DNA of 63,382 nucleotides, counting the filler, from Basidiobolus ranarum (Eukaryota), in NCBI GenBank assembly GCA_040143965.1. It is 33 parts of 33 records of this genome, joined end to end, with 100 filler letters (N's around TTAATTAATTAA, not from the genome) between each part and the next. Parts side by side here need not be neighbours in the genome. Positions count along the whole stretch, not along the records: positions 1 to 1,833 come from JASJQH010004245.1; positions 1,934 to 3,765 come from JASJQH010004246.1; positions 3,866 to 5,697 come from JASJQH010004247.1; positions 5,798 to 7,629 come from JASJQH010004248.1; positions 7,730 to 9,560 come from JASJQH010004249.1; positions 9,661 to 11,490 come from JASJQH010004250.1; positions 11,591 to 13,419 come from JASJQH010004251.1; positions 13,520 to 15,347 come from JASJQH010004252.1; 25 more parts are not named here. The stretch is one strand, 5' to 3'. The notes beneath the pieces are model-generated. The model saw only the letters and a list, made by a program, of their open reading frames with translations, did no database searches and was not told where the DNA came from. Position 1 is the first letter of the stretch; every line of letters begins with the position of its first letter. Below, piece by piece: positions 1-63,382 of the stretch. Position numbers and translations under genes: made by a program.

Positions 1-96
1 TGACACCATCACAGAATCAGCTGATGATATTGATGGGCTATACCTAGAATATCACCCTTTTGTGGATGGTGTTCTTTTTTCTACAATATCCTTCTC

Positions 97-1833
97 ATGC
101 CACAACACAAATGGTTAAAGATGCCTTGCTATTATTGTTGCACATTCTTGTGCTATGAAAGCTGGAGGCTTCATGAAAAAATAATCACCACATGGTCACT
201 GTACATTGCTGCCAGCTGCACAAATCCTGGTGTATAGCAACAGTACTAAGTGCACTATATTGACTTTAGTGTTGCCCATTGAGTCCAATGACTGTAGTTT
301 GCCTCAATGTTTTGGTAACTTTGCAAAAAGTCAAGATACCATGAAGTTACCACAGTTATATGACCGGAATGATATAGGTCAAAATGCAACTTGGGTCAAA
401 CCAGTAAGTCCAGACAACTTTGAGGACTTGCTGCTAGATGTTGACCTTGGTTATTCCAGTATCAATGGTAGTATATCAGAAGTTAAAGAAGAAGACAACA
501 GCATTGTTACAGACCCTTGGTTATTGGCAAACATTAGTCCACTCATAACACCTACTGTAAAGGTAGCAGTTTTGATTATTGAGGAGTGGAGAGTTTAATC
601 CAATCATAGCAACGCAGTGTTTATTAGTTTTCTTACACTTTTACCTCAGTTCATTGGCAACTGTTGCTTGCCACAGACCTGGTACAAGTAGAAAACACTT
701 CTCAATTGTATGATGTATCATTCTTCAGTAATTAAACAACCTTCATTTCCAAATGGTTGTTTGGCTTTTGCCAGTGATCTGACAAACCCAAAGTCATATA
801 CTGTTTGCACACAATTAGCAATCACCAAATCAGATAAATATCACTCATATTTGGCTTACATACAATTGATTCCCTGTCTTAAAGTTTTGATGAAATCATC
901 CAAATATATATCATTGATCTAATACCAAAGTACTCACCATTTAAGTTGAAGGTATTACCTATATACTTGATGGATATCCCTACCACTATCTGAAGAGTCA
1001 AGGTTTCTTTGAGAACACATATGATCATGCATTTGCATTAGCTCTGGAAGGTTTCTCACAAACAAATATACCATTGGAAGGGCTTGCTGGCCAATAATTT
1101 TGATCAACTTAAATATTTCTTCTTCTAAACAGTATAAGAGTCATAATATTTTGATACTATCCATCATATCTGGATCTAAATCTCCAGTGCTTGTTTATAG
1201 CTTCTTGGAGCCTTTGATTGTGGAATTTGAACAGTTATCTAATGGGGTTCGGATGCGTGAATATTTTATTAAAGCTAATATCTTTGTATGTATTGGTGAC
1301 ACTCCTGCCATCAGTAAGCTTGGAGGTTTTTCCAGGCATAATGCACTATCTTGCTTTAGATTTTGTCATATCAATAGAGTTAACTCTAACAGCCATATGC
1401 ATTACTACTATCCAAATACAGCACTAAATTTCATGATTTTACCATTAAGAGCCCGGTCATATTTCAACATCATCACTCCTATCAATTCACCAAATAGTCA
1501 GTCTAATATCAAACTTGATGTTAGCCATAAGCCTAACATTATATTGCTAAAGGGGATCAGCTGGAGCCAGAACTTCCCATTAGGCACTATGCACTTACTA
1601 TTCAACAACATTCTGATATTACTTACTCAGCTATATAGTGGAAAACACAATATGAATGAGCCATTCAAGATAGTATCAAAGTTTGAATTGATTGGGAAAA
1701 TGCTTGAAAACATCAAGATACTATCATATTTTACCAGGACTCCCATCAATATCCACTCATCTAGGCGTTTATTTAAATGCAAAGACTGGAAGTATTGGAT
1801 TTGTATATATTCAAGTGGAATCTTGAAAAGATT
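97..1833 (+). mobile_element. CACTA/EnSpm (Transposase_21-type) transposase pseudogene, N-terminal and central part
   Basis: Putative ATG at 97 (MPQHK..PCYYC); PNGCLAF..C.VC motif; WPIILINLN; GDTPAISKLGGF.RHNALSCFRFC; GTMHLLFNN; FKCKDWKYW. Many stops and frameshifts. Confidence 0.88.
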
Positions 1834-1933
1834 NNNNNNNNNNNNNNNNNNNNNNNNNNNNNNNNNNNNNNNNNNNNTTAATTAATTAANNNNNNNNNNN
1901 NNNNNNNNNNNNNNNNNNNNNNNNNNNNNNNNN

Positions 1934-2270
1934 AATTCTTTATGGAAATTTGCCAAAATCCAAGTGCTTATTCTCATTGTGAATGGTAACAAGAGTATGC
2001 TATTTGCCAAGTGTTGGTGCTATTTAAGATTTCAGGTGTTTAGCAATTTTTCTACCATTAGTTTGCTGGTTATGCATATTGATGTTGTTGAGTTACGTCT
2101 GATCAGTCCAGTATGTCCATACATAGACACTATATACAACAAGATTCTTGCATTTTTTGATTCCCATTATGGCAGTAATAGAAAGCCTGAAATATCTAAA
2201 TAAAGGTATGCATATTAATTTGAATTCCTGCAGCAGTAAACCCAGTAATTTACCATTCAAGTGTATTATT
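1934..2270 (+). mobile_element. CACTA family: transposase C-terminus and downstream flank
   Basis: Homologous to 36090-36524, 17376-17480 and (reverse) 27300-27620; ends ...FFDSHYG.N.KP.ISK*. Confidence 0.85.
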
Positions 2271-2299
2271 TTTCCAATCCAGATCAAATCAGTTTTATT

Positions 2300-3215
2300 T
2301 ATGTTAGAGGTTAGCTCAGATCCAAATTTTGAAGATATTGGCACATTACTCCCGCAGAATATGCAAAATCTGGCCTTGTCTCAACCATTATATGCATCAA
2401 ACTACCAACCATAGATTGAAAAGGAAATCTCTGGTTCTCATTTAAATCTAAGAATGTCTGATATCAGCCATTTTGGGTCATGTGAAGATTTTCTCCATTG
2501 GGGTAGATAATGGATCACATTCTTGCATTTTAAACTTCTTTAGTAAATCTAGGATATACTTAGACTGGTCTAAAGGTATTGTTCTGATAGTTCTATATAT
2601 CTTAATTTGGATTGCTAGATAGTACATCAGTTTGCCAAGATCAATCAATTTGAATTTGACAGATAAGCTGAATTTGGTCTTCTCCGAAGTCTTCCAATCT
2701 TTGGTTCCTATAATAAGGTCATCTACTTATAAGGCTATATAAAACGAGGTTTGTTTTATCCGGCCTGCACTTGATATCTGAGTCAGTGTTACTCTTTTGG
2801 AATTTGAATATTTCCAAAAAAGCATCTAACTTGCTATTCCAAGCTCTTGGAGATTGTGTGAGGCTATCAAGTGTTTTCCACGGTCAGAAAACTTTGTTGG
2901 GGTTTTTGAGTCCTCAAATCAATCTGACTGGTCCATATAGATCTCCTCAACCAGCTCACCATTCAAATAAGCTTCTTTAACATCCATTTGATTTCTAATC
3001 AACAAACATTTAGCCCAAATTGATCTAATTGAATTCAACTTTGCTACTGGTGCAAAAGTTTCTGTAAAATCTAATACTGGTGCTTTGGAATAGCCCTTTG
3101 CACTAGTCTAGCCTTACACTTCTCTATGTTGCTTTCAAGGTTATATTTAACTTTAAACACTTTTTAGCGGCCAGCTGATTTTCTGCCATCAGGTAAGTTG
3201 GTTAAAGTCCAATTG
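2300..3215 (-). mobile_element. Ty1/Copia reverse transcriptase remnant
   Basis: Minus-strand WTLTNLPDGRK..., ARLV.KGYS, FAPVAKLNS, FPFQSMVGSLM motifs, with stops. Confidence 0.88.
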
Positions 3216-3289
3216 GATAAACTTCTAAATTTAGCAATCTTCCAGCTGGTGTACCTGGTTTGATGGTAAAGTTAAGCCTTTTTGCTATT

Positions 3290-3765: not shown

Positions 3766-3865
3766 NNNNNNNNNNNNNNNNNNNNNNNNNNNNNNNNNNN
3801 NNNNNNNNNTTAATTAATTAANNNNNNNNNNNNNNNNNNNNNNNNNNNNNNNNNNNNNNNNNNNN

Positions 3866-5269
3866 ATGGAGAAGCAAGTGAAGGTCCCCATGATTGTTAT
3901 TGCCAAGTGTGGGACACCAGATGAAGCCAACTCTCCTAAGGCTGGAAATCGAGGTAAACGTGACAGTCAAATCATTCTCATGTCCTTTTTACAGCATGTT
4001 ATGTTTGACGACCGCATGACCGAGATGGAGTACGAACTATTCAATGCTATGTGGAGTGTTACTGGTGTTAGTCCAGATCATTTCGAGATTATATTGATGG
4101 TGGATGCAGATACGAAAGTTTACCCAGATTCCGTAACTCGAATGGTCTCTTGTATGGTTCGTGATCCACAAATTATGGGTCTTTGCGGGGAGACCAAGAT
4201 CGCCAACAAACGAAACAGCTGGGTGACTATGATTCAAGTCTTTGAATACTACATCTCACATCATTTGAACAAGGCATTCGAGTCCATCTTTGGTGGTGTT
4301 ACATGTTTACCTGGTTGCTTTTGCATGTATAGAATCAAAGCGCCAAAAGGGACGAACGGCTTCTGGGTACCGGTCTTGGTAAGTCCCGATATTGTGGATC
4401 ATTATTCGGAGAATGTGGTTGACACCCTACACAAGAAAAACCTTCTCTTACTGGGTGAAGACCGTTTCTTGAGTACTATGATGTTACGTACATTCCCCAA
4501 AAGAAAGATGATTTTCGTACCTCAAGCAGTATGTAAAACGGTGGTACCAGAATCCTTCAAAGTACTTTTATCTCAACGTAGACGTTGGATTAACTCTACG
4601 GTGCACAATCTCATGGAGCTGGTGCTTATCCGTGATCTATGCGGTACATTCTGCTTTTCAATGCAGTTTGTCGTGTTCATGGAGCTTGTAGGAACCGTTG
4701 TATTACCAGCAGCCATTTGCTTTACAATATACTTGGTGGTCATCTCATTCGTCAGTAAACCGGTCCCCGTCATTCCGTTGATTTTACTTGCGATCATTCT
4801 AGGATTGCCTGCAGTTCTAATTTTAATGACCACTAGAAAGTTGGTATATGTTGGTTGGATGTTGATTTATTTGATGGCATTATTTGTATGGAATTTCATG
4901 TTGCCAGTATACGCCTTTTGGCATTTCGATGATTTTAGCTGGGGTGAGACGAGACAAGTTTCGGGTGCTGATAAAAATGATGATCATGGGGCTACTGAAG
5001 GGGAATTCGACGGTGCTCTTATTACCATGAAGAAATGGTCGGATTTTGAAAGGATGAAGCGTAGAAAGACTCAAAGGACCCTCAATATTCTATCCATGAG
5101 TGGCAGGTTAACTCCCTCAGAGTCCCTTGAGAAGTTGGGCTATCAGACACCAAGTCAACTTGCCCATTTGTCGATTGTAAATTTATCCAACCCAAATAGT
5201 CATACACCCAGTGAGGAGGGAAGCGAGAGTAGTGGAAGTATTTTCTATAGACCTCTGAGTCCTCGGTAA
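3866..5269 (+). CDS. CHS3: Chitin synthase class IV (Chs3-like), 5'-truncated by contig edge
   Basis: Intact 467-aa ORF with [43 protein letters not shown]-terminal TM helices and FDDFSWG; closely follows yeast Chs3. The ATG at the contig edge is internal. Confidence 0.96.
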
Positions 5270-5445
5270 CTTTCCCAAGTGAATTTTCGCATATTACTAC
5301 CTCAACGAACACTTTTTCAATAAGTAGGGTTTGTCCCTTACAGGTTTATCCTTACCTTTTCACATTCAACTTTTGTTAAAAAGATACAATATTATAATAA
5401 TAAAATCGAGACAAATAATCGATTAAATGTCTGCAATAATCCCTT

Positions 5446-5697
5446 CTAGATATGGAAATCTTGAAACAAATGGCTGTAAGGATCCTCATAATTAGGTTCA
5501 TTAAGTTCTGCTTCTGGCTCCGGATATTTGTCAAAGTTGGATGTGTCACCGCAATGGCGATATGCTGGTACAATGGGGGCCTGGATTTGGCATTTAATAG
5601 TTGGCATCAGAAAGTGCAGGTTTGGGGTGAAGTTACCATGATGTCTCGATTCATAACAAGTTGCCAGTCTACTCCCGAAAACCACTTGTGTCTTTTG
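5446..5697 (-). CDS. cAMP-dependent protein kinase catalytic subunit (PKA/PRKX-like), last two exons (5637-5697, 5446-5580; intron 5581-5636)
   Basis: Spliced translation KRHKWFSGVDWQLVMNRDIM|APIVPAYRHCGDTSNFDKYPE...LFQDFHI* is an AGC-kinase C-tail with FxxF; 56-nt GTAACT...CCAG intron. Confidence 0.9.
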   Translation of the reverse strand, partial: QKTQVVFGSRLATCYESRHHGNFTPNLHFLMPTIKCQIQAPIVPAYRHCGDTSNFDKYPEPEAELNEPNYEDPYSHLFQDFHI

Positions 5698-11590: not shown

Positions 11591-11687
11591 CACTAAGTAA
11601 TGTTAACTAACTTATATGTGATATATGAAATAGTTAGGTGTATAAAGATAGAGATAACAAATATGATAAAGACAATAAACTTCAACA
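11591..11687 (-). repeat. LTR family E terminal part (TGTTGAAGTTTATTG... on minus)
   Basis: Near-identical segments ending ...AAACTTCAACA at 24474-24539 and 59651-59761. Confidence 0.75.
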
Positions 11688-13419
11688 CAGATTTGTTTTG
11701 GTAAATCTTCATCATGAAGCATTGATCTTGCCTTTTTCATTATGGATCTGTTTGCACTCTCTGGTACTCCATTCTGCTGTGGGGGATATGGTACTGTAGT
11801 CTGCTGTTTTATCCCATGTGTTGAGCAGAAGTTATAGAAGAGTTTAGAGGTATGTTCCCTTCCATTATCAGTATGGATAATCTGAATCTTTAATCCTGAT
11901 TCAGTCTCCAATATTGCTTTGAATTTCTTGAAGATATCATAGGCTTCATCCTTACTGGCCAGAGAGTACACCCAGGTATACTTTGTCTTATTGTCATTAA
12001 AGGTCATAAAATATCTTTTTGTATCCAAGGATTTTGTCTGCATTAGGCCCCTCAGATCTGAGTGTATCAGGCCCAATTCCTGATCACTTTTGCTCATTCC
12101 AGAGCCCACAAATGGCTGTCTGTGTTGCCTACTATATAGGCAACCTTTACATAGATCCAGATATGGGGGAATTAAAAAATATAGTCCCAAAACCATCTGG
12201 TTTTTGATTAAATATCTCATATTTTCAGCTCCTAGATAGCCCAATCTCCTATGCCAGATTTTCCAGTCTATCTCTTCAGCTATGGCAGTATTAGCTTGTT
12301 CATATATTAGCCTAATATAATGAAGTTTATACTTGTTATTTTGCTTAGCTCTAGAAGCTATGTAATTTCATTCTTGATCCCTGAGTGTATAGCCATATTG
12401 ATCAAAATTCAAGCTATTTCCCTCAGATGTAACTTTACTCACAAATAACAAATCTTTTGCTATCCCAAACACATATAGCATGTTTTGTAGTATCAAATAC
12501 ATGTCCTCAGAGATGCCTCCAAGATCCACTTCAATATCTCCTGCTTCCATAGCTTTGGGTGGCCAGTCATCTCCCGTATAAACCTTCATGTTTATGTCAG
12601 TTGTGAGTTTCTTAAACCAGTTTTTATAATTAGAGAATGTTGAGAGGTTCCAGAATCAATATATCACTTCCTACAGTCTTGTTTGGAGGTCACTGATAGG
12701 GCAGAAATGAATAAAACTTCCTGTTTGGTTGAAACTTGATTTGCTTGTTTTGACTTTACATTTTGTTGTAATATCTTGATTTGCAATCTTTTAATGCATG
12801 TCCTGGTTTGTTATAACCATAGCTTAAACCAGGTATCCTTCTTCTGTAACCTTTGTACTTGCCAATGCTATGTTTTCCAACTCCAAAAAAGCCACTTCCT
12901 CAGATTCTTTTTCTAAATTCTTACTTCTGAGGTGTTGATCTATTAGTCTTGCCACCACAAACTCCAAAGATACCTTGTTCGATTTTGCTTCCAAAGCTGT
13001 GACCAAGTTTGAATACTGTTCTGGTCAACTAGTTAGAAGAGTCATAGTGACATCTTCTTGCTGTAAAGTTGTTTAGTGACTCCAGAGTAAATATACCACA
13101 ACCTACAGTCTTGTTCAGAGGTCACTGATAGGACAGAAAAAAGTAAAACTTCCTCTTTGGTTGAAACCTGATTTACTTCTTCTGACTTCTCATTTTTGTT
13201 GTAATTTCTAGATTCACAATCTTTTAACTGGTGTCCTGGTTTCCTTCTTCTGTAACCTTTGTACTTGCCAAAGCTACATTTTCCAGCTCCAAACAGGGCC
13301 ACTTCCTCAGATTCTTTATCCAAATTCTTACTTCTGAGGTGTTGATTCATTAGCCTTGCCACCACAACCTCTAAAGACAACTTGTCAGATCTTGCCTCCA
13401 AAGCTGTGACCAAGTTTGA
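11688..13419 (-). mobile_element. Ty1/Copia gag-protease-GAG-pre-integrase-integrase remnant with a duplicated gag segment
   Basis: WHRRLGY..CKGC, LIHSDL, HTDNGREH, PQQNGV.E motifs; ORFs 12824-13006 and 13042-13413 are homologous. Confidence 0.9.
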
Positions 13420-17375: not shown

Positions 17376-17692
17376 GCTGGAATACAAGGCCTAAAATATC
17401 TAAATAAAGGCATGCATATTAATTTGAATTCCTACAGCAGTAAACCCAGTAATTTGCCATTTGAAAATTATATTTTTGCAAAAATTCCTGCATATTGAAT
17501 AACGCATGCCAAATTTGAGGATCAATATTTTAACATGTATGAATACCGTTAAGATACTGTCAAGAACCCGCCGTTACACCTTCAAAATCCCTGGCAGAAT
17601 GCAAGCCGGCAATATTGTGACGGTTCTCTGAGGTTTTGCTATTTTGGAGGATGGATCCGATCCGGATCAAATTGATTTTATTTTTGTCAGGG
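17376..17692 (+). mobile_element. CACTA family right end (terminus ...TTTTTGTCAGGG)
   Basis: Follows the transposase stop; same terminus at 27071 and 32400 in reverse orientation. Confidence 0.85.
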
Positions 17693-19855: not shown

Positions 19856-19909
19856 CTATTTTCCTCTTTGGGAGTTATTGCTTGTACCACAAGTCACCAG
19901 CTTTCAACA

Positions 19910-26906: not shown

Positions 26907-27070
26907 NNNNNNNNNNNNNNNNNNNNNNNNNNNNNNNNNNNNNNNNNNNNTTAATTAATTAANNNNNNNNNNNNNNNNNNNNNNNNNNNNNNNNNNNNNN
27001 NNNNNNGGAGCCTAAGGCCTTTCATGTTTAAAAAGTGAGCTGCAATTTGGAGTGTTATAAGCTAAAAATT

Positions 27071-30633: not shown

Positions 30634-30755
30634 TCATTGGGCCGTGTTCACCTCCGCATCTAAAGGTACACTCAGTTGTGCTCGAGGAGGGTACATTGGG
30701 TTTGGGTATGGCTGTGCTGGTGGGTACCCATGATTTACCGCTGTTGAGTTTGCGT
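30634..30755 (-). CDS. Possible C-terminus of an unknown host gene (Pro/Tyr-rich tail)
   Basis: Open frame from the contig edge: ANSTAVNHGYPPAQPYPNPMYPPRAQLSVPLDAEVNTAQ*; CpG retained as in host DNA. Confidence 0.4.
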
Positions 30756-36524: not shown

Positions 36525-36739
36525 NNNNNNNNNNNNNNNNNNNNNNNNNNNNNNNNNNNNNNNNNNNNTTAATTAATTAANNNNNNNNNNNNNNNNNNNN
36601 NNNNNNNNNNNNNNNNNNNNNNNNAGAATATAGGGGCTATAGATACGTTGCTTTCTGTTTCTGATATATGTATCATAACTAAAGTTAACTATGATGTTGA
36701 ATAAAGATTAATTATCCAACAAGTACATATGTTGTCATC

Positions 36740-38546: not shown

Positions 38547-38871
38547 AGTGTTAGTTTTCTGTATTTCCACCAAAATGTATAAATGCTTAATTTCTGGTCA
38601 ATAAATAATTATCTCACAAAGCTATTCACAACTCCACTTTTCTAAAGTTCCTTCAAAAGCCCAAATTTTCCCAATATGATCATGTGATTGGTCATATGAT
38701 CTTATAGAAGGGATAAGCAAATAGAGGGTTAGTCAGGTGATAGGTCAAATGATAAAGTCACTGGATAAGGTCAGGTGACTAGTTAGTGAGAATAATAAAC
38801 TAAACAGATATTCAAGCAAGTTGTAAAGATATGGCACAAGTTTAAACAACTTTTTATGTTGGTGTACAACA
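38547..38871. repeat. LTR family C 3' part followed by another LTR-like end (family G, TGTTGTACACC on minus)
   Basis: 38570-38675 matches 13520-13627; the next segment ends TACAACA at the junction with CACTA sequence and has repeated GTCA.GTGA motifs. Confidence 0.6.
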
Positions 38872-42389: not shown

Positions 42390-42530
42390 GTAATGATTTG
42401 TATGCAATCATAAGTAAAAACTATGAAGTTGCTATACAGGCCATGACAAGCAATAACGCCGCAATATCGCAATTAATGCAGCGTTCGGAAGCAACTAGTC
42501 AACAGTTAGAGAGTCACTCAACAATGATAC
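42390..42530 (+). mobile_element. CACTA ORF2 fragment retaining ancestral CpGs
   Basis: Aligns to 6729-6868; CG here corresponds to TG/CA/TA there. Confidence 0.85.
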
Positions 42531-46228: not shown

Positions 46229-46317
46229 AGAACACCACTGATAACTCCCACATCGTAACCAAAGAGGAAACCTCCGATAGCAGCAGCTGAAGCAGCGAGA
46301 TATACTAATACACCCAT
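46229..46317 (-). CDS. MFS sugar porter, N-terminus (paralogue 2; runs off the contig)
   Basis: ATG at 46317: MGVLVYLAASAAAIGGFLFGYDVGVISGV, the sugar-porter TM1 signature. Too short for the ORF track. Confidence 0.88.
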
Positions 46318-47270
46318 AGTATGATAATTGTAAATGTTTATGAACTTCTTGGAAACTCACCTGGTCTTATATACATGCTGTGTGGGCTAGATGGTGGCTT
46401 AAGGCCTAATTTTGCTTTTGGAAGGTACATAACTCCCCGCAGGTTATCTGCCCAGTTTGGTAATTCCATACCAAGACACCAACATTTTCTGAAACCTCAG
46501 TTTCTAACTAGTAGGCAGCTCTCTGTTGGCGACGATGGACAAGATGATAGGTAAAATTCATACTGAACGTGAAGGACAAATTCCGAACCCTTGGATTTAA
46601 TTGGTTGTAGTGGTCTAGAATCAGTAAATATAGGATTCCAATGGTTTAGAATATTCGTATACTTTAAATGGAAATAAATGAACAATGTTTGCATTAATCT
46701 ATGTAGAAGTTCTTAATTTTAACTGTTCATAATTGGATACTCAGCCAACCTATTATAGCAAATCTTCCACTGGGTCCAACTCAGACTGGTCACGCGGGAA
46801 ATAAAGATCTGCGCTCTGTTTTTTGTAGCGCGGCTTAGTAAACATTCGTCGCTACTTCTCACACTTATCTTAATCCAGTTCGTGTTCCATTCCTGTACAT
46901 GTTTTATTTCTAGAAATTTCGGTTCGATGATTTCAATCTGTATTATGTAACTTACACTGCTCTGAGCATTACCTATTTTCATCTAATCTACGGATAGTAT
47001 ATCTATATACTCGGATATTTCAACTTAATAATTGATTAAGCCCGGCTCCATATATGTGATAGTGCAGCAATTAGCATTAGCATAGCCTAACTGAGATAGT
47101 TATTTGAACCCTACGAGTGATCTCATACTACTGGGCGATTATTTGACAAAGCATTCGCCATTTAATGCACAATAACTTAAGTGGTTAGAGATTAATTTCC
47201 TTGTTAAAAGTGAAATACAGTAGAGTGGATGCTTCGACATAATAGGTTTTGTTAATACTGAAATATAGGT

Positions 47271-47362
47271 AATATATACATTTTTAGTTACAGAGATGGC
47301 TATTCTATAAGCTACACATGTAGTGTATTCGTTCTAAACTTTGGCTTTCTCTTCATTATTGG
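47271..47362 (-). pseudogene. Relic copy of the sugar porter last codons and 3' UTR
   Basis: Aligns to 47537-47627; reads ...NNEEKAKV* versus ...NIEEKIKV*. Confidence 0.7.
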
Positions 47363-47598
47363 TACGACAAAAGATCCCTTTGAGTCACTATCGAGGAGAT
47401 TACCTGATAAGTACGCGACATTTAATGGACGTTATCTAAAAAGATGCCCTGATACCAGTTTTACGATTAAAAATGAAGCACCATGGAGTGAATATTTTAT
47501 GATAATAAGATTTATTAATATATTGGAATATTGGAAATATATACAGTTCTAGTTACAGGGATGGCTATTCAAGAAGTAACACATGTAGTCTAGTCATT

Positions 47599-48046
47599 CT
47601 AAACTTTGATTTTCTCTTCAATGTTGGAGCAACCTCCAAACATGTGATCAATTTGTTCCAAACTCTTTCCTTTAGTTTCGGGTACAAAGAAGTACACAAA
47701 GATGAACATAAGGACACCGCATGCTCCAAAGATGATATACAGTCCCCAGCTAATAGAGTTGATCAAGGGTGGAACAACAAGAGCAATGATGAAGTTGAAG
47801 GCCCAGTTAGAAGCGGTAGTAATACTCATACACTTGGCACGGACACGAGTAGAGTAGATTTCGGATGGGTAAATCCAACCAATAGGTCCCCAGGTACAGG
47901 CGAAGAATGCAACAAACAAGTAGATCAAAGCAATCGTGGCATAGCCAGCTGACTTGTCATCGAAGCCACGAGGAGCGAAGATGGCAATCAAAGTACCAAC
48001 CAAAATCATGGCCAAAGCCATCAAGGCGGCACCAGCGAGCAAGAGA
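47599..48046 (-). CDS. MFS sugar porter (hexose transporter family), C-terminal part (paralogue 1)
   Basis: WGPIGWIYPSEI, R.RAK, NWAFNF, VPETKGKSLEQID motifs; TM helices. Confidence 0.95.
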
Positions 48047-48146: not shown

Positions 48147-49964
48147 TGTGTAGTAGCAGAGGCAGCCATATACTCTGCTTCTGTAGTGGAAAGTGCTATG
48201 GTTGGTTGCTTCTTACTATTCCAAGTTATGGCTCCATTACCATAGAGAAAAGTGTATTCAGTTGTTGATCGTCTATCATCAAGGTTTCTTCCCCAGTCTG
48301 CATCACTGTAGCCTTCAAATTTCATGCATCAGGAGTGGCAGAGTATTCCAGAACTAGATCTACACTCCCTCTCACATACCTAAATATTTCTTTTACTGCA
48401 GTTTTGTGCTCAGATTCTGGATTTTTGAAATAGTGGCTGACAGTTCCCACTGCTACAGCAATGTCTGGACGTGCTCCAACTATTGTATACATTAAACTAC
48501 CAACCATTGATTGATAAGGGAGCTCCTGGCTTTGTTTCGAGTCACTTTGGGCCAAATCAGTTTAATTCTAATTAATATCACATTGGGATCCTTTGGTGTT
48601 GATACAGGCTTGCTATTCTCCCTGTTGAAGCATTTTAGGATGTCTAGGATGTATCTAGACTGGCTCAGCATGATCTTCTGATTGGGTTTATCTCTCTTGA
48701 TTTGGATTCCAACAATGTAACTTAATATATCCATAGCAGTCATCTGAAATTGGTTTGATAAGCTACTTTTTGACTGATTAAGTGCTTTTAGATCATCTGT
48801 GGCTATGATTGAGTCATCCACATATAGTGCCAAGATAAGGATCCTATTTCTGGTTGTTTTGATGTACATACTGTGATCTGCTGTGCATTTTTGGAATTCC
48901 AGAGATTTCAAATGGGCATCTATCTTGTTGTACCATGCCCTGGGTCTTGCTTGACTCTATATAGCAATTTTTGCAGTTTACAGACCTTATCAGGATGTTT
49001 TGAGTCAACAAATCCATCTGTTTGCTACGTAGAGATCTCTTCTTCTAGATTTCTATTCAGAAAGGCTGTTTTTACATCCTTTGGATGTAGATCAAGGTTA
49101 TGAACGGCTGTGAGTGCCAGGATTGAACTAATGGCACTAAACATAGCTACTGGAGCAAAGGGTTCATTAAAATCAACTCCTGGAGTCTGGGAATAGCCTT
49201 TTGCAATTAATCTTGCTTTGTAGCTTTTTATGGTTCCATCAGCTTGTTTTTGACTTTGTAGACCCATTTGCACCCTATTGGCTTTCTCCCCAATGGAAGA
49301 GGACTTAAAACCCACATGTTATTGTCCTGAAGTGTAGAAAACTGATCTGACATTGCTTTTTCCCATAATTTTGATTATGGACACTCCAAAGCTTGATCTA
49401 AAGTCTGAGGCTTGTCACAGAATGCTGCATAAAAATATACATCATCATTGGCAGTGTTTCACCAGTTTCCTGGCTTATTTCTCCTTCTGGATGATCTTCT
49501 GGGTCCTGTATCATCCTTCTATGTAATTGGGACTGAAATTTTGGTTGAATAGAGCTCAGATACAGCTGGAATCTTGTCAGACACTTCCTGAATAGTGCTA
49601 ATTGTTTTCTGGATCAACAACTGTGATTTGAGGTGAAAAAATTGCTTTTTCATCAAAAATCACATCTCTGCACTTCATTAACTTCTGATTTTTTGTATCA
49701 AACAATTTGTAGGCTTTGGATCCATCACAGTAACCACAAAATATGCATTATCTGATTTTGGGTTTCAATTTTGAGCCTTTTTGAGCTGGAATTAGGCAAT
49801 ATGCTGCGCCACCAAAGATCCTGAGAGGATCCACACTGGGTTTTGATCCATATAGAGCTTCAAATGGAATAGAATTTTGTAGCAATCTTGTTGGGCATCT
49901 TTTTTAGATACAGAATGCAGTGTAGACAGCTTCCGCCCAATATTGGTAATCTAACTTTTGATCT
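48147..49964 (-). mobile_element. Ty1/Copia family A integrase end-RT-RNase H remnant
   Basis: YKARLIAKGYSQ, LYVDDS, YQSMVGSLMY, GYSDADW, WNSKKQPTIALSTTEAEY. Confidence 0.94.
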
Positions 49965-50064: not shown

Positions 50065-51882
50065 CTCTTGGATTTTGGCAAATTTACATAAAGAATTCAG
50101 CTAAAACATCGCCAACTTGCAGTCAACAAATGTCCTGCCACCAGTAGATTTATCATTGCTGGAATAGATTACCTCATGGCTAAAACGATAATACTGCATA
50201 TCTCCATCTATCTCACCAATAAGTCTGTCTTGCAGCTTTCCTAAAAATACCATCAGATGATCACACAAGCAAATTAGTCCAAATTATAGAGGTACTTACT
50301 TTGTGTCCATGGATTGGGCTTTGTTGCTTTTATTATGCTCAAACAATGCAAAAACCCATGAGTACATTGAAAAGAGCCCTTTGTTGGTAGGTTAGTATAC
50401 TTCAGAGTCTCCGTCACCCACCACGCTACATTCATCACTGATTTTCCTGTTACATTGTTAATCAGATTAGCATTTGGTAATACTAACAATTTCACAAAGA
50501 GCATCATTTCACCACAGCTGCACCCCATTGGGAACTACTAGAAGGTATAGCAAGGTCCTATAATCTCCAAGCATTATGAAAGATGCAGCAGGGAATGTAT
50601 TGAAAACTGGCATAGATTCAATCTATCTTCTTTAAGCCTGCAATATAGTTTTCCATATCCTATTACAAAATCTTAGCATAGTTGCTGTATCTGCTTCATA
50701 TCTGCCAATGTGAGTTGATGCTATAAGAACATATTAACAGTATTGACAAACAACTCCCAATGTTGCCAATACTTATAAGGTGGAAATCTTGTCAAAATTC
50801 CACTTGAATATATACAATTCCAATATTTCCAGTCTTTGCACTTGAATAAACACCTAGATGAGTGGATATTGATGGGAGTGCTGGTAAACTATGATGGTAT
50901 CTTGATGTTTCAAGTATTTTCCCAAACAATTCAAACTTGTTGCCAGCCAGTCCCATTTATCAATATAATCTCAGGCTTACTGCTAACACCAAGTTTTATG
51001 TTAGACTGACTACTTGGTAAATTGATATCAGTGATCATGTTGAAATCTGACCAGGCTCTTGACAGTAAAATCATGAAGTTTAGTATTGTATTTGGATACC
51101 AGTAATGTGTATGTCTGTTAGAATAAGCTCCATTGATTTGACAAAGTCTACAGCAAGATAGTTCATTATGCCCATAAAAACTTCAAAGGTTACTGAAGGC
51201 AGGAGTGCCACCAATACATACAAAGATATTAGCTTTAATAAAATATTCACCTATCTGAACCCCATTAGGTAACCATTCAAATTTTGCAATCTAAGGTTCC
51301 AAGAGGCTATCTAAAAGCACTGGTGATTTAGGCCCAGATATGATTGATGGAATCAAAATATTGTGACTCTTATACCATTCAGAAGGAGGAAGATTAAAGT
51401 TAATTAAAATTATTGGCCAGCAAGCTTTTCCAATGGGATATTCATTTAGTGAGAAACCATCCAGAGCCAATGCAAATGCATGATCATATATTTTCTTAAA
51501 GAAACCTTGACTTTTCAGATTGTTGTAGTGATATCCATCAAGTAACATGGTAAAACCATCAACTTTACAGTGGATACCTTGGTATTGCATTGCTGATCTA
51601 TATTTGCATGATTTCATCAAAAAAATATGAATAATATTTACCTGATTCAGTGATTGCCATTCGTGTTCAAACAGTACATGACTTCAAGTTTTTCAGATCA
51701 CCAGTGAAAGCCAAACAACAATTTAAACATGAAGGTAGTTTAATTACTGAAGAATAATAAGTCAAACAATGGACAAGTGTTTTCCACTTGTACCAGGTCT
51801 GTGGCAAGCAACAGTTGCCAATCAACTGTGGTAAAAGTGTAAGAAGACCAATAAACACCTGGTTGCTAAGATTGGATTGAAC
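50065..51882 (-). mobile_element. CACTA transposase pseudogene
   Basis: ALALDGF..ACWPIILINFNLPPSEWYK..SIISGPKSP motifs; internal deletion near 50940. Confidence 0.9.
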
Positions 51883-51982: not shown

Positions 51983-53800
51983 AAGAATCTTGTTGTGTTT
52001 AGTCTCTACATATGCACATACTTGACTGATTAGACATAACTCAACAACATCAATATGTTTTACCAGCAAACTAATGGTGGAAAAATTGCTAAATATCTGA
52101 AATTTTGAATAGCGCTGACACTTGGCAAAGAGCTGACTCTTGTTACCATTCCCAATGAGAATAAGCTCTTGGATTTTGGCAAGTTTCCATAAAGAATTCA
52201 GTCAATTTATCCCCAACTTGCAGTCAACAAATGTCCTGCCACAAGTAGATGTGTCATTGCAGGAATAGATTATCCCATGGCTAAAACAATAATATTGCAT
52301 ATCTTGATCTATCTCACCAAGAAGTCTGTCTTGCAGCTTTCCTAAAAATACCATCAGATTATCAAACAAGCAAATTAGTCCAATTATAGAAGTACTTACT
52401 CTGTGTCCATGGTTGGGCTTTCTTGCTGTTATTGTGCTCAAACAATGCAAAAACCCATGAGCACATTGAAAAGAGCCCTTTGTGGCAGGTTAATATACTC
52501 TGGAGTCTCCTTAACCCATTACATTACATCCATCACCGATTTTGCTGATACATTATTAATCAGATTAGCATATGGTACTACTGACAATTTCACACAGAGC
52601 ATCATTTCACCACAGGTGTGCTCCATTGGGAACTCCCAGAATGTATAGCATGGGCCTATAATCCCTAAGCATTGTGAAAGATGTAGCAAGGAATGTATGG
52701 AGTACCGGCATAGATTTGGTCTATCTTCTTTAAACCTGTAATAAAGTTTTTCATATCCAAGTACAAAATCTTCACAAAGTTGCTGTATCTGCCTGAGGTC
52801 TGCCAATTTGAGTTGATGCTGTACGAATATATTTACAATATTGACAAACAACTCCAAATGCTGCCAATACTTATCAGGCAGAAATCTTTTCCAAATTCCA
52901 CTTGAATATATACAAATCCAATACTTCCAGTCTTTGCATTTGAATAAATGCCTAGATGAATGGACATTGATGGGAGTCCTGGTAAAATATGATGGTATCT
53001 TGATGTTTTCAAGCAGTTTCCCAATCAATTCAAACTTTGATCCTACCTTGAATGGCTCATTGATATTAAATTTTCCACTATATAGATGAGTAAGTAGTAT
53101 TGGAATGTTGTTGAATAGTAAGTGCATAGTGCCTAAAGGGAAGCTCTGGCTCCAGCTGATCCCCTTTAGCAATATAATCTTAGGCTTATGGCTAATACCA
53201 AGTTTGATGTTAGACTGACTATTTGGTGAATTGATATCAGTGATCATGTTGAAATCTGTCTGGGCTCTTGATGGTGAAATCATGGAGTATAGTGTTGTAT
53301 TTGGATAGTAGTAATGTGTATGCCTGATAGATTAAACTCCATTAATTTGACAAAATCTACAGCAAGATAGTGCATTGTGCCCACAAAAACCTCCAAGTTT
53401 GCTGATGGCAGGAGTGTCATCAATACATACAATGATATAAGTTTTAATAAAATATTCACCCATCTGAACCCCATTAGATAACTGTTCAAGTTCCACAATC
53501 AAAGGCTCCAAGAAGCTATCTATAAGCACTTGTGCTTTAGGTCCAGATATGATGGACAGTATCAAAATATTATGACTCTTATACCATTCAGAAGGAGGAA
53601 GATTGAAGTTGATTAAAATTATTGGCCAGCAAGCCTTTCCAATGGTATATTTGTTTAGTGAGAAACCATCCAGAGCCATTGCAAATGCATGATCATTCAT
53701 GTTCTCAAAGAAACCTTGACTTTTCAGATTTTGGTAGTGATATCCATGAAGTATATTGGCAATACCTTCAGCTTTATGGTGAGTACTTTGGTATTGGATC
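51983..53800 (-). mobile_element. CACTA transposase pseudogene, least decayed catalytic region in the window
   Basis: ORFs 53332-53700 and 52519-53283 carry LDG, DTPA, CCRFC, GTMH, HSLLHL, GPCYTFWEFPME. Confidence 0.92.
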
Positions 53801-57734: not shown

Positions 57735-58235
57735 GAATATTTTTACCTACTTAGAGTTCTCAGATATATAGATTTTTCAAACTTGTGCTAAAAGCCCCAA
57801 ACTTTGCACACATGTTCCTGGGACCTTCCTTAACACATTCTACATATTTGTTTGACTACATCTTGACAAAACTATAAATATTAACTGAATACTCAATAAA
57901 TCAATAAGTGAAAACCACCAATTCCACTAATTCTCTAAACCACTTCCAACAGGCTCCCATATACTTTAACAATTTAATCACTTTTGCAAAGTTCATGGAA
58001 TTAAGCAAGAAACCACTGCCCCCTATTCACCTCAACAAAATGGTGTTGCTGAAAGAGCTAACAGGAATATAATAGAGATGGCAAGATCTATGATAAATGC
58101 ACAAAATTTATTTCATAATTTTGGGTTGAATCTGTTGCTACAGCTGTATATCTGAAGAATAGGAGTTTTACCCAAGTCTGTTTAACTCTATACCATATCA
58201 AGCTTAGTTTGGAGTTAAACTTGATGTAAAATGTT
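57735..58235 (+). mobile_element. Family B LTR 3' part (to 57971) abutting a Copia integrase fragment
   Basis: LTR homology; PYSPQQNGVAERANR motif. Confidence 0.85.
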
Positions 58236-59650
58236 AATGAATAGGTCTAAAGTCCACCTGAATAGCAAGTTGAATATCATCACTGATAGCTTGATAAATT
58301 GAGTGGAATCACAAAGTTGGGAGATCCCAGGTTCTCCCCAGGTATGGCCCTGTGAACCATATAGTATGACTCCACCTGGCTTTAAACTGAAAAGGAAATG
58401 TTTCTAATGGATCTGTCAGTGCACACTAGATGAGTTTTTACTAATGGAACATCCATAATCAGATCCACTCTTCTTTACTTTGCAGAAGCTGTGTTGGAAA
58501 GCAACTTACTGTACAACCAAAGTTGAATATATGGTTTTTGATTAATCAACAAAGAATAAATGTGCTACATAAACATTGCTAAATCTGAGAATTCAGCCAC
58601 TATCATTCCAAATGCTATTTAATTAGTCAAGATCCGGTCTATCATGTTAGCAATAAGCAAATTGCAGAAACTTACTCGATATCCGCACACTACATGTTAT
58701 ATTCTTATAGTCTTGCATTACTAACTACATCAATTCAACAGTATTGTAAGTGTATCTGGTAAAAAGTAGCATACAAATGGACAGCATTGTATTATTAGAA
58801 AAACAGTTAAGAATAACCACGTCTAGTAGGAGTATTTTCCCGCCAATGTCATGACTACAAACACTGTGACGAAGTAATTAATAGTTTCACAATAATTTGA
58901 GATTGACTAGTGGGGGATACTTTGTCAGAGCGTTCAATTACTATTCAAAATCATTTAATATTATACGATTTTCCACTTGTTCGACTTCCGGTCAATAGTG
59001 TAAGAAATATATCGCACTTAGCCTTGAAAGATTCCTAATACTGTTACAGTGCGTGCACTCTCAAGGCAATAGTAACTATTTCCCATTCAGAACTAAGAAC
59101 CTATAAGAACCAGGTAGGATGAGACTCCCAAGTGTTGACTATGGCCCTAGGGAATACCTACATCAAACCCCACGAGCATGGCCCAGGCTCAGTAACGCAG
59201 ACCAAATTTGCAGAATTCGTCACCTGATAGGCAATACTAAAACCATCGTTGCTAGGGTATCAAAGGATCGGAGTTATCTTCAAAGTAAAAGATTTGGTAG
59301 TATTAAAACAATGTTGGTCCTAAAGGTTTCAGTTTGAGTCCATAAGGCTTCAATAGTCCGCTGGTGATAGGTGTTCTCCTTGCATAGAGCATCAGAAGAA
59401 ATACCTTAACATGGTCGATAATCACCATGGCAGTAAAATTATTGAATATGGCTTAGTAGTGGAGCAATGACTCCAAACATCCTTCTTAGATTTTCGCTTT
59501 ATACTGAGTGCCACTATTCTCAAGGTTCAAAAGAGACAATGTATTCTTGGNNNNNNNNNNNNNNNNNNNNNNNNNNNNNNNNNNNNNNNNNNNNTTAATT
59601 AATTAANNNNNNNNNNNNNNNNNNNNNNNNNNNNNNNNNNNNNNNNNNNN

Positions 59651-61145: not shown

Positions 61146-61149
61146 TGCA

Positions 61150-61466
61150 GATCTTGTTACTGTTGTTATAAACCAGGCTTTGTGCAGCTGGTGGCTTTGT
61201 ATAGTGACTGGGCTTGTGATTATTTTTCTATGAAGCCTCCAGCTTTCATAGCACAAGAATTTGCAACAATAATAGCAGGGCTTCTTTAAACATTTGTGTT
61301 GTGGCATAGGAAGGATATTGTAAAAACAAGAACACCTCCCACATAAGGGTGGTATTTTAGGTATAGCCCATAAATATCATCAGCTGATTCTGAGACGCTG
61401 TCACAAATGAGTCATCAGGGGATTTACAATATAGTTCTGGTAATGGAGGGCGTGTTTGGTTTTTTA
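61150..61466 (-). mobile_element. CACTA head region (transposase N-terminus, ATG at 61307)
   Basis: MPQHKCLKKPCYYCCKFLCYESWRLH; matches 1-260. Confidence 0.82.
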
Positions 61467-61775
61467 NNNNNNNNNNNNNNNNNNNNNNNNNNNNNNNNNN
61501 NNNNNNNNNNTTAATTAATTAANNNNNNNNNNNNNNNNNNNNNNNNNNNNNNNNNNNNNNNNNNNNCAATATGCTCCAATGTGTTCTGCCATGCAACAGA
61601 GGTCATGGCAGCCAGTCAAAAGAGATGAAGCTTCTATCATGGTTGAAGAGGCAAGAACTGGCAAATGCAAACCTCAAGGTATATGACTTGCTCCAACACG
61701 TACTGGAATGCAACCATGACAATGGCCAGTTGAAGGAGATGAAGCTGCCACTGTGGTTGAAGAAGCAATAACCAC

Positions 61776-61910
61776 TGTTGTTGTTTTAGGATGTAAGCAT
61801 CAACTATAACTGCAATATCCTAAGGGTTTTGTGAGGTGTTCAAAGGGTGCAATAACCATGGTTGAATAACTCTGGGATGTACTGTAATATGGGTCGGTCT
61901 CTTGCCTCTT
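61776..61910 (-). repeat. Gypsy LTR 3'-end fragment (same family as 38116-38250)
   Basis: Collinear TGT..TTGTTTTAGG.TGTAAGCA.CAACTATAACTG...CTCTTGCCTCTT. Confidence 0.8.
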
Positions 61911-63382
61911 GAAATGAAACATACACATTACTACTATCCAAATACAACACTGAACTTCATGATTTTACCATCAAGAGCCTGGTCAGATTTCCACATGATT
62001 ACTGATATCAATTCACCAAATAGTCAGTCTAATATCAAACTTGGTATTAGCCATAAGCCTAAGACTATATGGTTAAAGGGGATCAGCTGGAGCCAGAGCT
62101 TCCCATAAAGCACTATGCACTTACTATTCCACAACATTCCAATACTACTTACTCAACTATAAAGTGGAAAATTCAATATGAATGAGCCATTCAAGATAGG
62201 ATCAGATTTTGAATCAATTGGGAAAATGCTTGAAAACGTCAAGATACCATAATGATTTACCAAGACTCCCATCAATATCCACTCATCTAGGTGTTTATTC
62301 AAATGCAAAGACTGGAAGTATTGGATTAGTGTATATTCAAGTGGAATTTTGAAAAGATTTCTGCCTGATAAGTATTGGCTACATTAGTAGTTGTTTGTCA
62401 ATATTGCTAATATATTCTTATGGCATCAACTCACATTGGCAGATCTCAAGCAGATACAGCAACTGTGCAAAAATTTGTAATTGGATATGAAAAACTTTGT
62501 TACAGATTTACTGAAGAGAGACTGAATCTATGCTTGTTTTCATTACATTCCCTGCCGCATCTTTGACAATACTTAGAGATTATAGGCCCTTGCTATACAT
62601 ATGGGAGTTCCCAATGGAGCACACCTGTGGTGAAACAGTGCTCCATGTGAAATTGTCAGTATTACCATATGCTAATCTGATTAAAAATGTATCAGCAAAA
62701 TCAGTGATGGATGTAATGCAATGTGTTAAGGAGACTCCAGAGTAGAATAATCTGCTATCAAAGGGTGCTTTTCAATGTGCTCATGGATTTTCACATTGCT
62801 TGAGCACAATATTAACAACAAAGCCCAATCCATGGACACAAAGTAAGTACCTCTATAATTGGACTAATTTGCTTGTGGGATAATCTGATGGTACTTTAGG
62901 AAAGCTGCAAAACAGGCTTCTTGGTGAGATAGATTCAGATATGTAATATTGGCATTTTTGCCATGGGGCAATCTATTCAAGCAATGACACATCTACTTGG
63001 GGCAGGACATTTATTGACTGCAAGTTGGGGATATATTGGCTGAATTCTTTATGGAATTTGCCAAAATCCTAGAGCTTATTCTCATTGTTAATGGTAACAA
63101 GAGTGAGCTATTTGGCAAGTGTCAGTGCTATTCAAAATTTCAGAAGTTTAGCATTTTTTCTACCCTTAGATTGCTGGTAAAGCATATTGATGTTGTGAGA
63201 TAGATTCAGATATGTAATATTGGCATTTTTGCCATGGGGCAATCTATTCAAGCAATGACACATCTACTTGGGGCAGGACATTTGTTGACTGCAAGTCGGG
63301 GATATATTGGCTGAATTCTTTACGGAAATTTGCCAAAATCCAAGAGCTTATTCTCATTGTGAACGGTAACAAGAGTCAGCTA
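61911..63382 (+). mobile_element. CACTA transposase 3' half with a 271-bp tandem duplication (units start 62924 and 63195)
   Basis: WEFPMEH and other family motifs; duplicated block with shared private substitutions. Confidence 0.9.

Follow-up and report, generated by a model that had tools for sequence, protein, structure and literature searches.

Depletion of CpG driven by methylation was reportedly described by Bird in 1980 for animal genomes, and classical RIP, known from Neurospora and other ascomycetes, prefers CpA and leaves a high TpA/ApT ratio and a positive composite index. For the rust Austropuccinia psidii, CpG-hypermethylated transposable elements are described next to hypomethylated coding sequences and UTRs, together with CpG depletion, insignificant RIP indices and fewer CpGs in older insertions (bioRxiv 10.1101/2025.05.29.656941). 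In fungal repeats, Horns et al. (2012) set a TpCpG hypermutation in Pucciniomycotina beside a generic excess of CpG transitions in Agaricomycotina, the latter ascribed to 5mC deamination, and their work already holds the debate between methylation with deamination and a RIP-like process that arises here (PMC3318451). Among early-diverging, 6mA-rich lineages, Phycomyces blakesleeanus, which has DNMT1, and the zoopagomycete Linderina pennispora carry CG-enriched 5mC almost exclusively in repeats; these are measured methylomes, reported without a mutational footprint in transposon alignments in the parts of that study that present them, whereas here it is the mutational footprint alone that we describe (PMC11258239). 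Our literature search found no equivalent report for Basidiobolus, and the first-pass annotation of this DNA drew its comparators from ascomycetes and rusts, whereas the host here is Basidiobolus-like.

The window, i.e., the whole stretch of DNA analysed (63,382 nucleotides), is a sample of 33 contigs (c01 to c33) of 1816-1833 bp each, arranged in size order and joined by N44-12mer-N44 spacers. Its main features are the following:
3866-5697, plus strand: host-gene contig c03, chitin synthase fragment (ORF 3866-5266; Chitin_synth_2, E=1.6e-225), CpG retained
28932-30755, minus strand: host-gene contig c16, pieces of a G-patch protein gene, CpG retained (observed/expected 0.85)
46229-48046, minus strand: host-gene contig c25, C-terminus of a sugar transporter (ORF 47602-48045) and 1.37 kb of unique non-ORF DNA
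51983-53800, minus strand: c28, best-preserved copy of the CACTA (Pfam Transposase_21) transposase, CpG observed/expected 0.07
1-1833, plus strand: c01, N-terminal copy of the CACTA transposase
23156-24981 (c13), 27007-28831 (c15), 30856-32678 (c17), 34702-36524 (c19), 38547-40368 (c21), 50065-51882 (c27) and 61567-63382 (c33): other CACTA copies
48147-49964, minus strand: c26, Ty1/copia RT relic (RVT_2, E=1.8e-22), with related copia pieces on c05, c12, c14, c18, c07 and c08

Chitin synthases of Basidiobolus ranarum/meristosporus share 87-89% identity with the one on c03, the G-patch match (29618-29806, minus strand; Pfam E=7.2e-6) lies above the cut-off, and the sugar transporter matches Pfam Sugar_tr at E=9.3e-41. 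No repeat partner of the chitin synthase contig was found within the window, and the repeat search likewise left the G-patch contig unique there. Transposase_21 (CACTA), RVT_2, rve and gag_pre-integrs domains (Pfam) lie on CpG-poor contigs, the last three being matched on c07, c08, c12 and c14. The CACTA copies, which were also matched by tblastn with the intact 698-aa ENA protein P0121, are 83-90% identical among themselves (blastn), and c28, the reference of our 9-copy alignment, retains 426 codons with one in-frame stop at 87% identity to P0121. A single repeat network of CACTA and copia sequences unites 28 of the 33 contigs, c31 among them (c07 and c20 fall outside), and the host genome is very repeat-rich. 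Judged by its protein matches, the host belongs to the early-diverging fungi (Zoopagomycota), is Basidiobolus-like and is not a rust. It resembles A. psidii in having a large, AT-rich fungal genome dominated by transposons and, on our reading, transposon-targeted 5mCpG with historic deamination, but A. psidii is a basidiomycete in which methylation was measured, whereas here it would follow from a 63-kb contig sample of a zoopagomycete.

CpG observed/expected, computed per contig, is 0.72, 0.85 and 0.70 in the chitin synthase, G-patch and sugar transporter contigs (pooled, 156 CpGs observed and 207 expected), 0.34 in c31 and 0.02-0.23 (median 0.09) in the remaining 29 contigs of CACTA and Ty1/copia, with ranges of 0.02-0.21 for the CACTA copies and 0.02-0.13 for copia. 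Pooled transposon contigs hold 146 CpGs against 1668 expected (0.09; gene versus transposon contigs, Mann-Whitney P = 2e-4), so that the contrast claimed by the first-pass annotation, depleted repeats (0.02-0.23) and undepleted host genes (0.70-0.85), is borne out. The loss goes to TpG and CpA, as had also been proposed: the CG deficit of the transposon contigs (~1522) is matched by an excess of TG+CA (~2136), and reciprocal TG/CA columns are found in the alignments (see below). Since unique non-ORF DNA keeps its CpGs (0.74 in 46229-47601 of the sugar transporter contig, with 0.58 in its ORF; 0.59 in the 428 bp downstream of the chitin synthase ORF, itself at 0.75) and transposon coding regions lose theirs, this is not a coding versus non-coding effect.

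The two compartments meet within one contig, c31:
57735-58634, plus strand: CpG-free half, a copia integrase relic and ~400 bp of adjoining sequence, 0 CpG
58635-59550, no strand assigned: CpG-normal half, unique, unclassified DNA directly adjoining the CpG-free half, 20 CpG
The first half, with 0 CpGs for 26.4 expected and a TG+CA observed/expected of 1.31, includes an rve_3 fragment (57970-58152), and contig positions 1-501 are homologous to c29, c24, c10 and c23 (blastn/tblastx); in the second half the values are 0.61 for CpG and 1.10 for TG+CA. The switch from 0 to 20 CpGs is sharp and falls at ~position 900 of the contig, past the transposon part, and the probability of finding no CpG in the first half at the second half's rate is 1e-7.

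This contig bears directly on the idea that the assembly is mixed, its CpG-poor transposon contigs coming from an organism depleted of CpG genome-wide, e.g., an animal host, and its CpG-normal contigs from a fungus. Such a mixture might be suspected from the high fragmentation of the assembly, from the ESM-Atlas neighbours of the transposon proteins (arthropod, basidiomycete and plant clusters), from the copia integrase, whose best named matches are plant and insect proteins at only 40-44% identity, and from GpC observed/expected, which is unlike between the compartments (0.83 vs 1.16). However, c31 joins a transposon relic to CpG-normal DNA, the CACTA transposase has a B. ranarum protein as its nearest named relative (74% identity; next full-length relatives at most 37%), CACTA and copia belong to the one repeat network, and GC content and the remaining dinucleotide values are alike in gene and transposon contigs. 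The homology search gave no close relative of the copia integrase in any taxon, and thus the copia contigs are assigned to this lineage by the repeat network alone. Typical vertebrate values of CpG observed/expected are, moreover, higher than the 0.02-0.1 seen in transposons here. We consider a mixed assembly very improbable. The TpG/CpA products are those of animal genomes, as on our reading the chemistry would be too, but where vertebrates show genome-wide depletion with unmethylated islands, the present pattern is a mosaic of depleted transposons among genes and unique DNA that have kept their CpGs.

Homologous copies record the direction of change. Across 113 HSPs (66,784 aligned columns) a CG is conserved in the homologue in 2.6% of cases, compared with 67-75% for the other 15 dinucleotides, and is replaced by CA in 28% and by TG in 28%. 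TG and CA co-occur at 154 of 5891 column pairs, whereas each of seven control double-transition pairs does so at 12-42. In the 151 TG/CA sites the copy states (n=843) are TG 360, CA 327, TA 60 and CG 14, i.e., CpG survival at identifiable ancestral sites is 1.7%; c28 has 57 reciprocal TG/CA sites. At control AC&GT sites the intermediate GC/AT states are kept in 64 of 161 copies. Decay is strand-symmetric. Three codons in the CACTA alignment illustrate it (coordinates of c28):
53260-53262, minus strand: codon with its ancestral CpG and both decay products, CGG in c01, CAG in c15, c17, c21 and c28, TGG in c19, c27 and c33
52618-52620, minus strand: MEH/MEC codon, TGC in c13, c15, c19 and c27, CAC in c17, c28 and c33
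52819-52821, minus strand: W/Q/stop codon, TGG in two copies, CAG in three, TAG in two (c19 and c27)
Both reciprocal codons that had been pointed out, MEH/MEC (TGC in four copies, CAC in three) and W/Q (TGG in three, CAG in four, with CGG surviving in c01), are thus real, and the TAG at the third of these codons is due to double decay. Inactivation of ORFs through CGA to TGA had been suggested as well; such stops exist, but they are a minor route, since CpG gave rise to only 4 of the 35 positions at which the CACTA frame has a stop.

The excess of TG&CA sites (~120) implies that ancestral transposons had a host-like CpG observed/expected, 0.64 or more, and therefore the loss occurred inside this genome lineage. 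The reciprocal sites largely refute an intrinsic avoidance of CpG by the elements, i.e., selection on transposons or a CpG-poor donor in place of mutation in this genome, which would fit the CpG poverty of every transposon class in the window, including the best-preserved c28, but not the reciprocal disagreements at 151-154 sites, the surviving CGG and CG states, the ancestral value or the similar decay of dead copies and non-coding transposon parts. We give this alternative very little credence.

Decay has proceeded gradually, in step with the divergence of the copies, same-state sharing climbing with non-CpG identity (r = 0.61, 35 copy pairs). It is seen in progress in one segment:
17503-17664, no strand assigned: part of c10, homologous to 32418-32631 in c17 and ~27067-27385 in c15
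Of its 11 CpG sites, c10 keeps eight, c17 seven and c15 none, with TG or CA at all 11 in the last, and c10 and c17 are 91% identical over the shared segment. CpG-type changes make up only 1311 of 10,550 inter-copy mismatches (12.4%), with a ts/tv of 1.22, and the mismatch profile resembles that of repeats ageing neutrally in the usual way, to which CpG hypermutability is added; the earlier description of the repeats as hypermutated overstates how much of the divergence is of this type.

The pattern alone fits both passive 5mC deamination and an enzyme-driven, CpG-specific mutator, and both had been offered. In the second case a DNMT-family protein or deaminase would recognise duplicated DNA and turn the C of its CpGs into T, acting in bursts linked with a sexual or parasexual stage. 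The restriction to repeats, the very deep loss (observed/expected down to 0.02, survival 1.7%) and the hits on both strands would suit it, as would some weak clustering of same-strand events (|z| > 1.96 in 6 of 37 runs tests, with negative values in five of the six; mean z -0.29). A precedent for CpG-containing targets is the TpCpG hypermutation of Pucciniomycotina (PMC3318451). Entomophthoralean relatives are claimed to have RIP-index signals and two-domain DNA_methylase genes (PMC11105155). With classical RIP the present case shares C-to-T mutation that is limited to repeats and can make stop codons (PMC11105155). Unlike classical RIP, it combines a CpA/TpG excess and a ts/tv of 1.22 with a negative CRI (-0.78) in the transposon contigs, where TpA/ApT is 0.78 and (CpA+TpG)/(ApC+GpT) 1.57. 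Nor is there a trinucleotide target: the 5' base at the 151 decayed sites (302 strand-sites) is A in 94, T in 85, C in 78 and G in 45, so decay follows all four bases, as had been claimed, CCG being mildly over-represented (P = 0.003, chi-square test). The Pucciniomycotina target needs a 5' T, which is present here at only 85 of 302 strand-sites, and the decay, concentrated as in Horns et al. at C before G in transposon alignments, resembles the generic CpG pattern instead (PMC3318451). The same-strand clustering is at least in part inherited, the long TG run of c28 is common to other copies, and decay is graded, not all-or-none per copy. We consider a RIP-like mutator unlikely; because decay is gradual, CpG-type mismatches amount to 12.4%, ts/tv is 1.22 and RIP indices are negative, the data favour methylation with deamination, and CpG methylation confined to transposons followed by 5mC deamination is probably the best reading.

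A variant in which transposon methylation was ancestral and has since been lost, other marks now silencing elements whose sites are no longer methylated or hypermutated, seems to us quite unlikely. Family-level decay is indeed saturated (only four copy-sites are still near-unanimously CpG), and among surviving transposon CpGs with at least two aligned homologues, 38 of 81 sit at positions that read as none of CG, TG or CA in the homologues; many survivors are probably newly created, as expected if new CpGs were no longer removed quickly, which also makes the 2.6% conservation an imperfect estimate of survival. The group has been called 5mC-scarce as well (PMC11258239). Yet values of 0.02-0.1 lie far under the level to which CpG would relax after a long time without hypermutability, and since 91%-identical copies still differ at 7 of 11 CpG sites, decay went on late in the family's history. 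B. meristosporus encodes CDCA7F, and species with CDCA7/CDCA7F in the same survey all have HELLS and nearly all DNMT1, with Basidiobolus absent from the exceptions it names, which suggests that all three are retained (PMC10538959).

On the reading of transposon methylation and deamination, germ-line transposon DNA (CACTA and Ty1/copia, coding and non-coding) would be, or long have been in the past, CpG-methylated on both strands by a cytosine methyltransferase of the maintenance type (DNMT1, for instance), probably aided by CDCA7F/HELLS, while host genes and adjacent unique DNA would be unmethylated. Spontaneous deamination of 5-methylcytosine to thymine would turn CpG into TpG when it strikes the top strand and into CpA when it strikes the bottom strand, with TpA as an occasional later product, at a rate tens of times that of change at other cytosines. 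As this would have run on while the families diversified, sub-lineages would have inherited some losses, while others would be confined to single copies, the outcome being near-complete CpG erasure with occasional nonsense and missense changes as a by-product. Zoopagomycota are described as 5mC-scarce and Basidiobolomycota as 6mA-rich (PMC11258239), and strong CpG methylation of transposons may thus be somewhat unexpected in this group, or historic instead of current. Transposon-only CpG loss is what cytosine methylation aimed at repeats, followed by deamination, classically leaves behind, and such methylation is an already known kind of genome defence.

The window is made up of 33 contigs, arranged from the longest (1,833 bp) to the shortest (1,816 bp) and joined by 44 N's, a 12-base AT spacer and another 44 N's. 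It is therefore not a single locus but a near-random draw from a fragmentary assembly, and its overall GC content is ~35%. Given that 29 of these contigs (numbered c01 to c33 in window order) are transposable element (TE) relics, as is half of c31 (the other half being unique DNA), the source genome must be extremely repeat-rich. The three remaining contigs carry host genes, recognized by Pfam:

3866–5266 (c03): class IV-type chitin synthase (E = 1.6e-225)
29618–29806 (c16): G-patch motif
47602–48045 (c25): C-terminus of a sugar transporter

The three best matches of the chitin synthase (89%, 89%, and 87% identity) all belong to Basidiobolus ranarum or B. meristosporus, with the next genera at 70–78%. 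Given this closeness to Basidiobolus proteins, the host is a Basidiobolus-like zoopagomycete, unlike the basidiomycetes (rusts and others) implied by the comparators of the first-pass annotation. A tRNA-Ser (anticodon AGA) was also called by ARAGORN within a CpG-poor repeat contig (c04, 7476–7548); whether it represents an element derived from a tRNA, a pseudogene or a coincidental match, it has no bearing on the CpG question.

CpG observed/expected ratios (o/e) were 0.72, 0.85, and 0.70 in the gene contigs c03, c16, and c25, 0.34 in c31 and 0.02–0.23 (median 0.09) in the other 29. Pooled, the gene contigs hold 156 CpGs against 207 expected (o/e 0.75) and the TE contigs 146 against 1,668 (o/e 0.09), which bears out the first-pass claim that transposon contigs are nearly CpG-free and host-gene contigs CpG-rich. 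The deficit is confined to the repeats and comes with a compensating excess of TpG/CpA, i.e., a shortfall of ~1,522 CG and a surplus of ~2,136 TG+CA in the TE contigs. Transposase and reverse transcriptase coding regions are depleted, whereas unique non-ORF DNA keeps its CpGs (o/e 0.74 over 1.37 kb of c25, and 0.59 over the 428 bp 3' of the chitin synthase ORF), so the depletion is not a coding effect. As an observation, transposon-restricted CpG decay is thus confirmed and robust. GpC runs in the opposite direction, with an o/e of 0.83 in the gene contigs vs 1.16 in the TE contigs.

The switch is also visible inside a single contig. Where 26.4 CpGs would be expected in the first 900 bp of c31, there are none (TG+CA o/e 1.31); the remaining 916 bp contain 20 (CpG o/e 0.61, TG+CA o/e 1.10), and the chance of finding one half CpG-empty at the o/e of the other is P = 1e-7. 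Homology to other contigs covers contig positions 1–501 only; the following ~400 bp (contig positions 502–900, 58236–58634), lying between the copia relic and CpG-normal DNA, are CpG-free without homology to the other contigs, and represent either unmatched element sequence or a CpG-depleted state that spread ~400 bp past the element. The start of c23 (42457–42486), where five CpGs in 30 bp at the contig edge are followed by CpG-free sequence of 23–27% GC, may likewise mark a junction of unique DNA with a TE.

Beyond the host genes, the contigs bear Transposase_21 (CACTA) and the Ty1/copia domains RVT_2, rve, and gag_pre-integrs, all above or near Pfam cut-offs, the CACTA class being assigned from protein domains. 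For the CACTA transposase, a word-indexed search with the 270-aa CACTA ORF turned up a single relative, an intact 698-aa protein in ENA (P0121, 87% identical); as a tblastn query, P0121 matched 12 contigs, 11 of them at 58–89% identity and c30 weakly at 34%. Given this intact relative, and the single in-frame stop among the 426 codons of the best-preserved copy (c28, 51983–53800, minus strand), recent activity of the family is possible, even though it has almost no CpG. A full HMMER scan with P0121 listed the best 150 matches, and the source was checked for nine of these and for P0121 itself: of these ten, one carries an organism name, a B. ranarum partial protein with 74% identity across 114 aligned query residues, another is labelled 'hypothetical protein' (JGI/IMG), and the full-length relatives among the matches listed reach 37% identity or lower. 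For the copia integrase (c07, 11615–12367), searched against the 441–2000-aa length class of 5.8 billion clustered proteins, none of the 120 matches listed exceeded 44% identity or came from Basidiobolus, the best among them (40–44%) being from plants and insects; this genome's copia lineage has little coverage in public data. ESM Atlas neighbours of the TE proteins fell in arthropod, basidiomycete, and plant clusters and were taxonomically uninformative. In blastn, 28 of the 33 contigs form one repeat network that includes CACTA pieces, copia pieces, and c31, in which a copia relic is physically joined to CpG-normal unique DNA; with the CACTA relatives, this makes it highly improbable that the contrast arises from DNA of different organisms mixed in the assembly. 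Apart from these families, c20 (36625–38446) combines a CpG o/e of 0.09 with an unusually high GC of 40.8%, has neither a Pfam match nor a repeat partner within the window, and encodes a 252-aa ORF (37123–37878, minus strand) with a zinc-knuckle-like C-x2-C-x4-H-x4-C pattern, which is probably the gag of a retrotransposon family otherwise unsampled here.

All-against-all blastn within the window yielded many copies at 78–90% identity, from which the course of the decay can be read. In 113 HSPs spanning 66,784 aligned columns, 2.6% of the CGs face CG in the homologous copy, 28% face CA and 28% TG, and the remaining 15 dinucleotides each have a conservation of 67–75%. Reference-anchored pileups (5,891 adjacent column pairs, ancestral states gauged by column counts) showed TG and CA co-occurring at 154 positions, against 12–42 for each of seven control double-transition pairs (Poisson P = 2e-40 vs the largest control). 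At 151 such sites, the 843 copy states comprise 360 TG, 327 CA, 60 TA, and 14 CG, i.e., a CpG survival of 1.7% and a near-perfect strand symmetry, with CG to TG and CG to CA about equally frequent and decay independent of the flanking base (apart from a mild excess of 5' C); at control AC/GT sites the intermediate GC/AT states were kept in 64 of 161 copies. The ~120 excess sites amount to 2.0% of dinucleotide positions, where the base composition predicts 3.2% for CpG, and hence the family ancestors had a CpG o/e no lower than 0.64, similar to present host genes, so that CpGs were lost within this genome lineage and not missing from the start; that the elements avoid CpG intrinsically is very hard to credit. 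Individual codons show the same thing: 52618–52620 (minus), the codon behind the MEH and MEC variants of the first-pass annotation, appears as TGC four times and as CAC three times across the copies; 53260–53262 (minus), of its W/Q type, has one CGG (c01), four CAG, and three TGG; and 52819–52821 (minus) is TGG, CAG or, through double decay, TAG. These codon examples were exact as a whole.

The annotation had further proposed that CpG decay inactivates ORFs, and this holds in part. Within the 426-codon CACTA frame, one or more copies have a stop at 35 positions (42 occurrences; insertions relative to c28 do not enter the pileup, so the count leaves out frameshifts), and four of these positions (seven occurrences) are CpG-derived, with TGA opposite CAA at two and TAG opposite TGG/CAG or CAG/CGG at the other two. 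CpG decay thus adds to ORF inactivation without dominating it, and most stops arise from other changes.

Decay had been described as occurring after A, C, G, and T, and all four bases are indeed found 5' of the decayed C at 302 strand-sites (A 94, T 85, C 78, G 45); CCG is mildly over-represented (P = 0.003 vs base composition). The 85 sites with T fall under the 32% share of T in the base composition, and the strict 5' T of Pucciniomycotina-type TpCpG hypermutation is therefore not seen. Classical repeat-induced point mutation (RIP) has as its signature a high TpA/ApT, a low (CpA+TpG)/(ApC+GpT), and a composite index above 0. The TE contigs give 0.78, 1.57, and -0.78, opposite to what CpA-biased C->T change of the ascomycete kind should leave, and C:G->T:A transitions do not dominate copy divergence either (5,793 transitions and 4,757 transversions, ts/tv 1.22), so we reject this candidate as well. 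Mismatches in CpG-decay configurations account for 1,311 of the 10,550 between-copy differences (12.4%).

The tempo of loss is graded. A 280-bp segment with 11 CpG sites shows decay in progress, c10 retaining eight of them, c17 seven, and c15 none (TG or CA at all 11). Across 35 CACTA copy pairs, the share of ancestral-CpG sites at which the two copies ended in the same state rises with non-CpG identity (r = 0.61), from ~0.5 at 85% to 0.7–0.8 at 91%, and thus decay ran alongside the diversification of the family, some losses being inherited and others private to one copy. Together with the low ts/tv, these figures describe a gradual, age-dependent loss and not a burst. The 37 runs tests for strand-specific tracts (mean z -0.29; six with |z| > 1.96, five of them toward clustering) found no copy-private tracts, and the longest run, in c28, is also present in other copies and therefore inherited. 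Polarisation of singletons left four near-unanimous CpG copy-sites, too few for a CpG rate; for non-CpG C>T changes it gave 182/3287 at CpA (inflated because some ancestral CpGs are misassigned), 69/1675 at CpC, and 97/2700 at CpT. Judging by survival, CpG transitions run some tens of times faster than non-CpG ones, a rough estimate since 38 of the 81 surviving TE CpGs with at least two aligned homologues appear newly created and not retained.

A pattern that is repeat-restricted, CpG-specific, strand-symmetric, without 5' context, and gradual is the textbook footprint of methylation and deamination, and we consider this the probable cause: the repeats alone would be CpG-methylated, and their 5mC would then deaminate spontaneously, turning CpG into TpG/CpA. 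The first-pass annotation had offered this mechanism alongside a CpG-specific RIP-like defence, and the graded tempo, low ts/tv, and absence of a trinucleotide target favour the former. A RIP-like mutator is thus an unlikely cause, even though a part of PMC11105155 raises RIP outside Dikarya from index evidence. A little less likely again is its more specific form, in which an enzyme of the non-Dikarya Basidiobolus lineage, possibly one of the DNMT1/RID family, would be directed at repeats and mutate C->T specifically at CpG, its plain target. Such a mutator, if real, would have erased transposon CpGs down to an o/e of 0.02 and spared DNA a few hundred bases away. We similarly doubt that the footprint of methylation and deamination is historic only.

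Early-diverging fungi are poorly mapped for cytosine methylation, the Basidiobolus group is described as one where adenine methylation dominates, and our literature search found no paper mapping 5mC or describing TE CpG decay in Basidiobolus. Passages of PMC10538959 list B. meristosporus among the fungi with CDCA7F and state that all species with CDCA7/CDCA7F have HELLS and nearly all DNMT1, Basidiobolus not being an exception named there; from this text we infer that B. meristosporus, the closest sequenced relative, probably has DNMT1 and HELLS, which supports the methylation reading indirectly. In the portion of PMC11258239 consulted, 5mC is almost exclusively in repeats in Phycomyces and the zoopagomycete Linderina, and Zoopagomycota are 5mC-scarce and Basidiobolomycota 6mA-rich, a background against which a CpG-decay footprint is mildly unexpected. 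The closest comparators are the TE 5mCpG decay of the rust Austropuccinia psidii (preprint, bioRxiv 10.1101/2025.05.29.656941) and the generic excess of CpG transitions in Agaricomycotina TEs (PMC3318451). What is new here is the lineage and the depth of depletion; no new mechanism is revealed. CpG o/e (below ~0.25 vs above ~0.6) offers a simple marker for sorting TE-derived from host DNA when assemblies from this lineage are fragmentary. Such deep, transposon-restricted decay argues for long-standing CpG methylation of repeats as a genome defence in the Basidiobolus-like lineage too; the footprint predicts which sequences would be expected to carry 5mC today, and is relevant to how fungi of this kind cope with genomes so rich in repeats.
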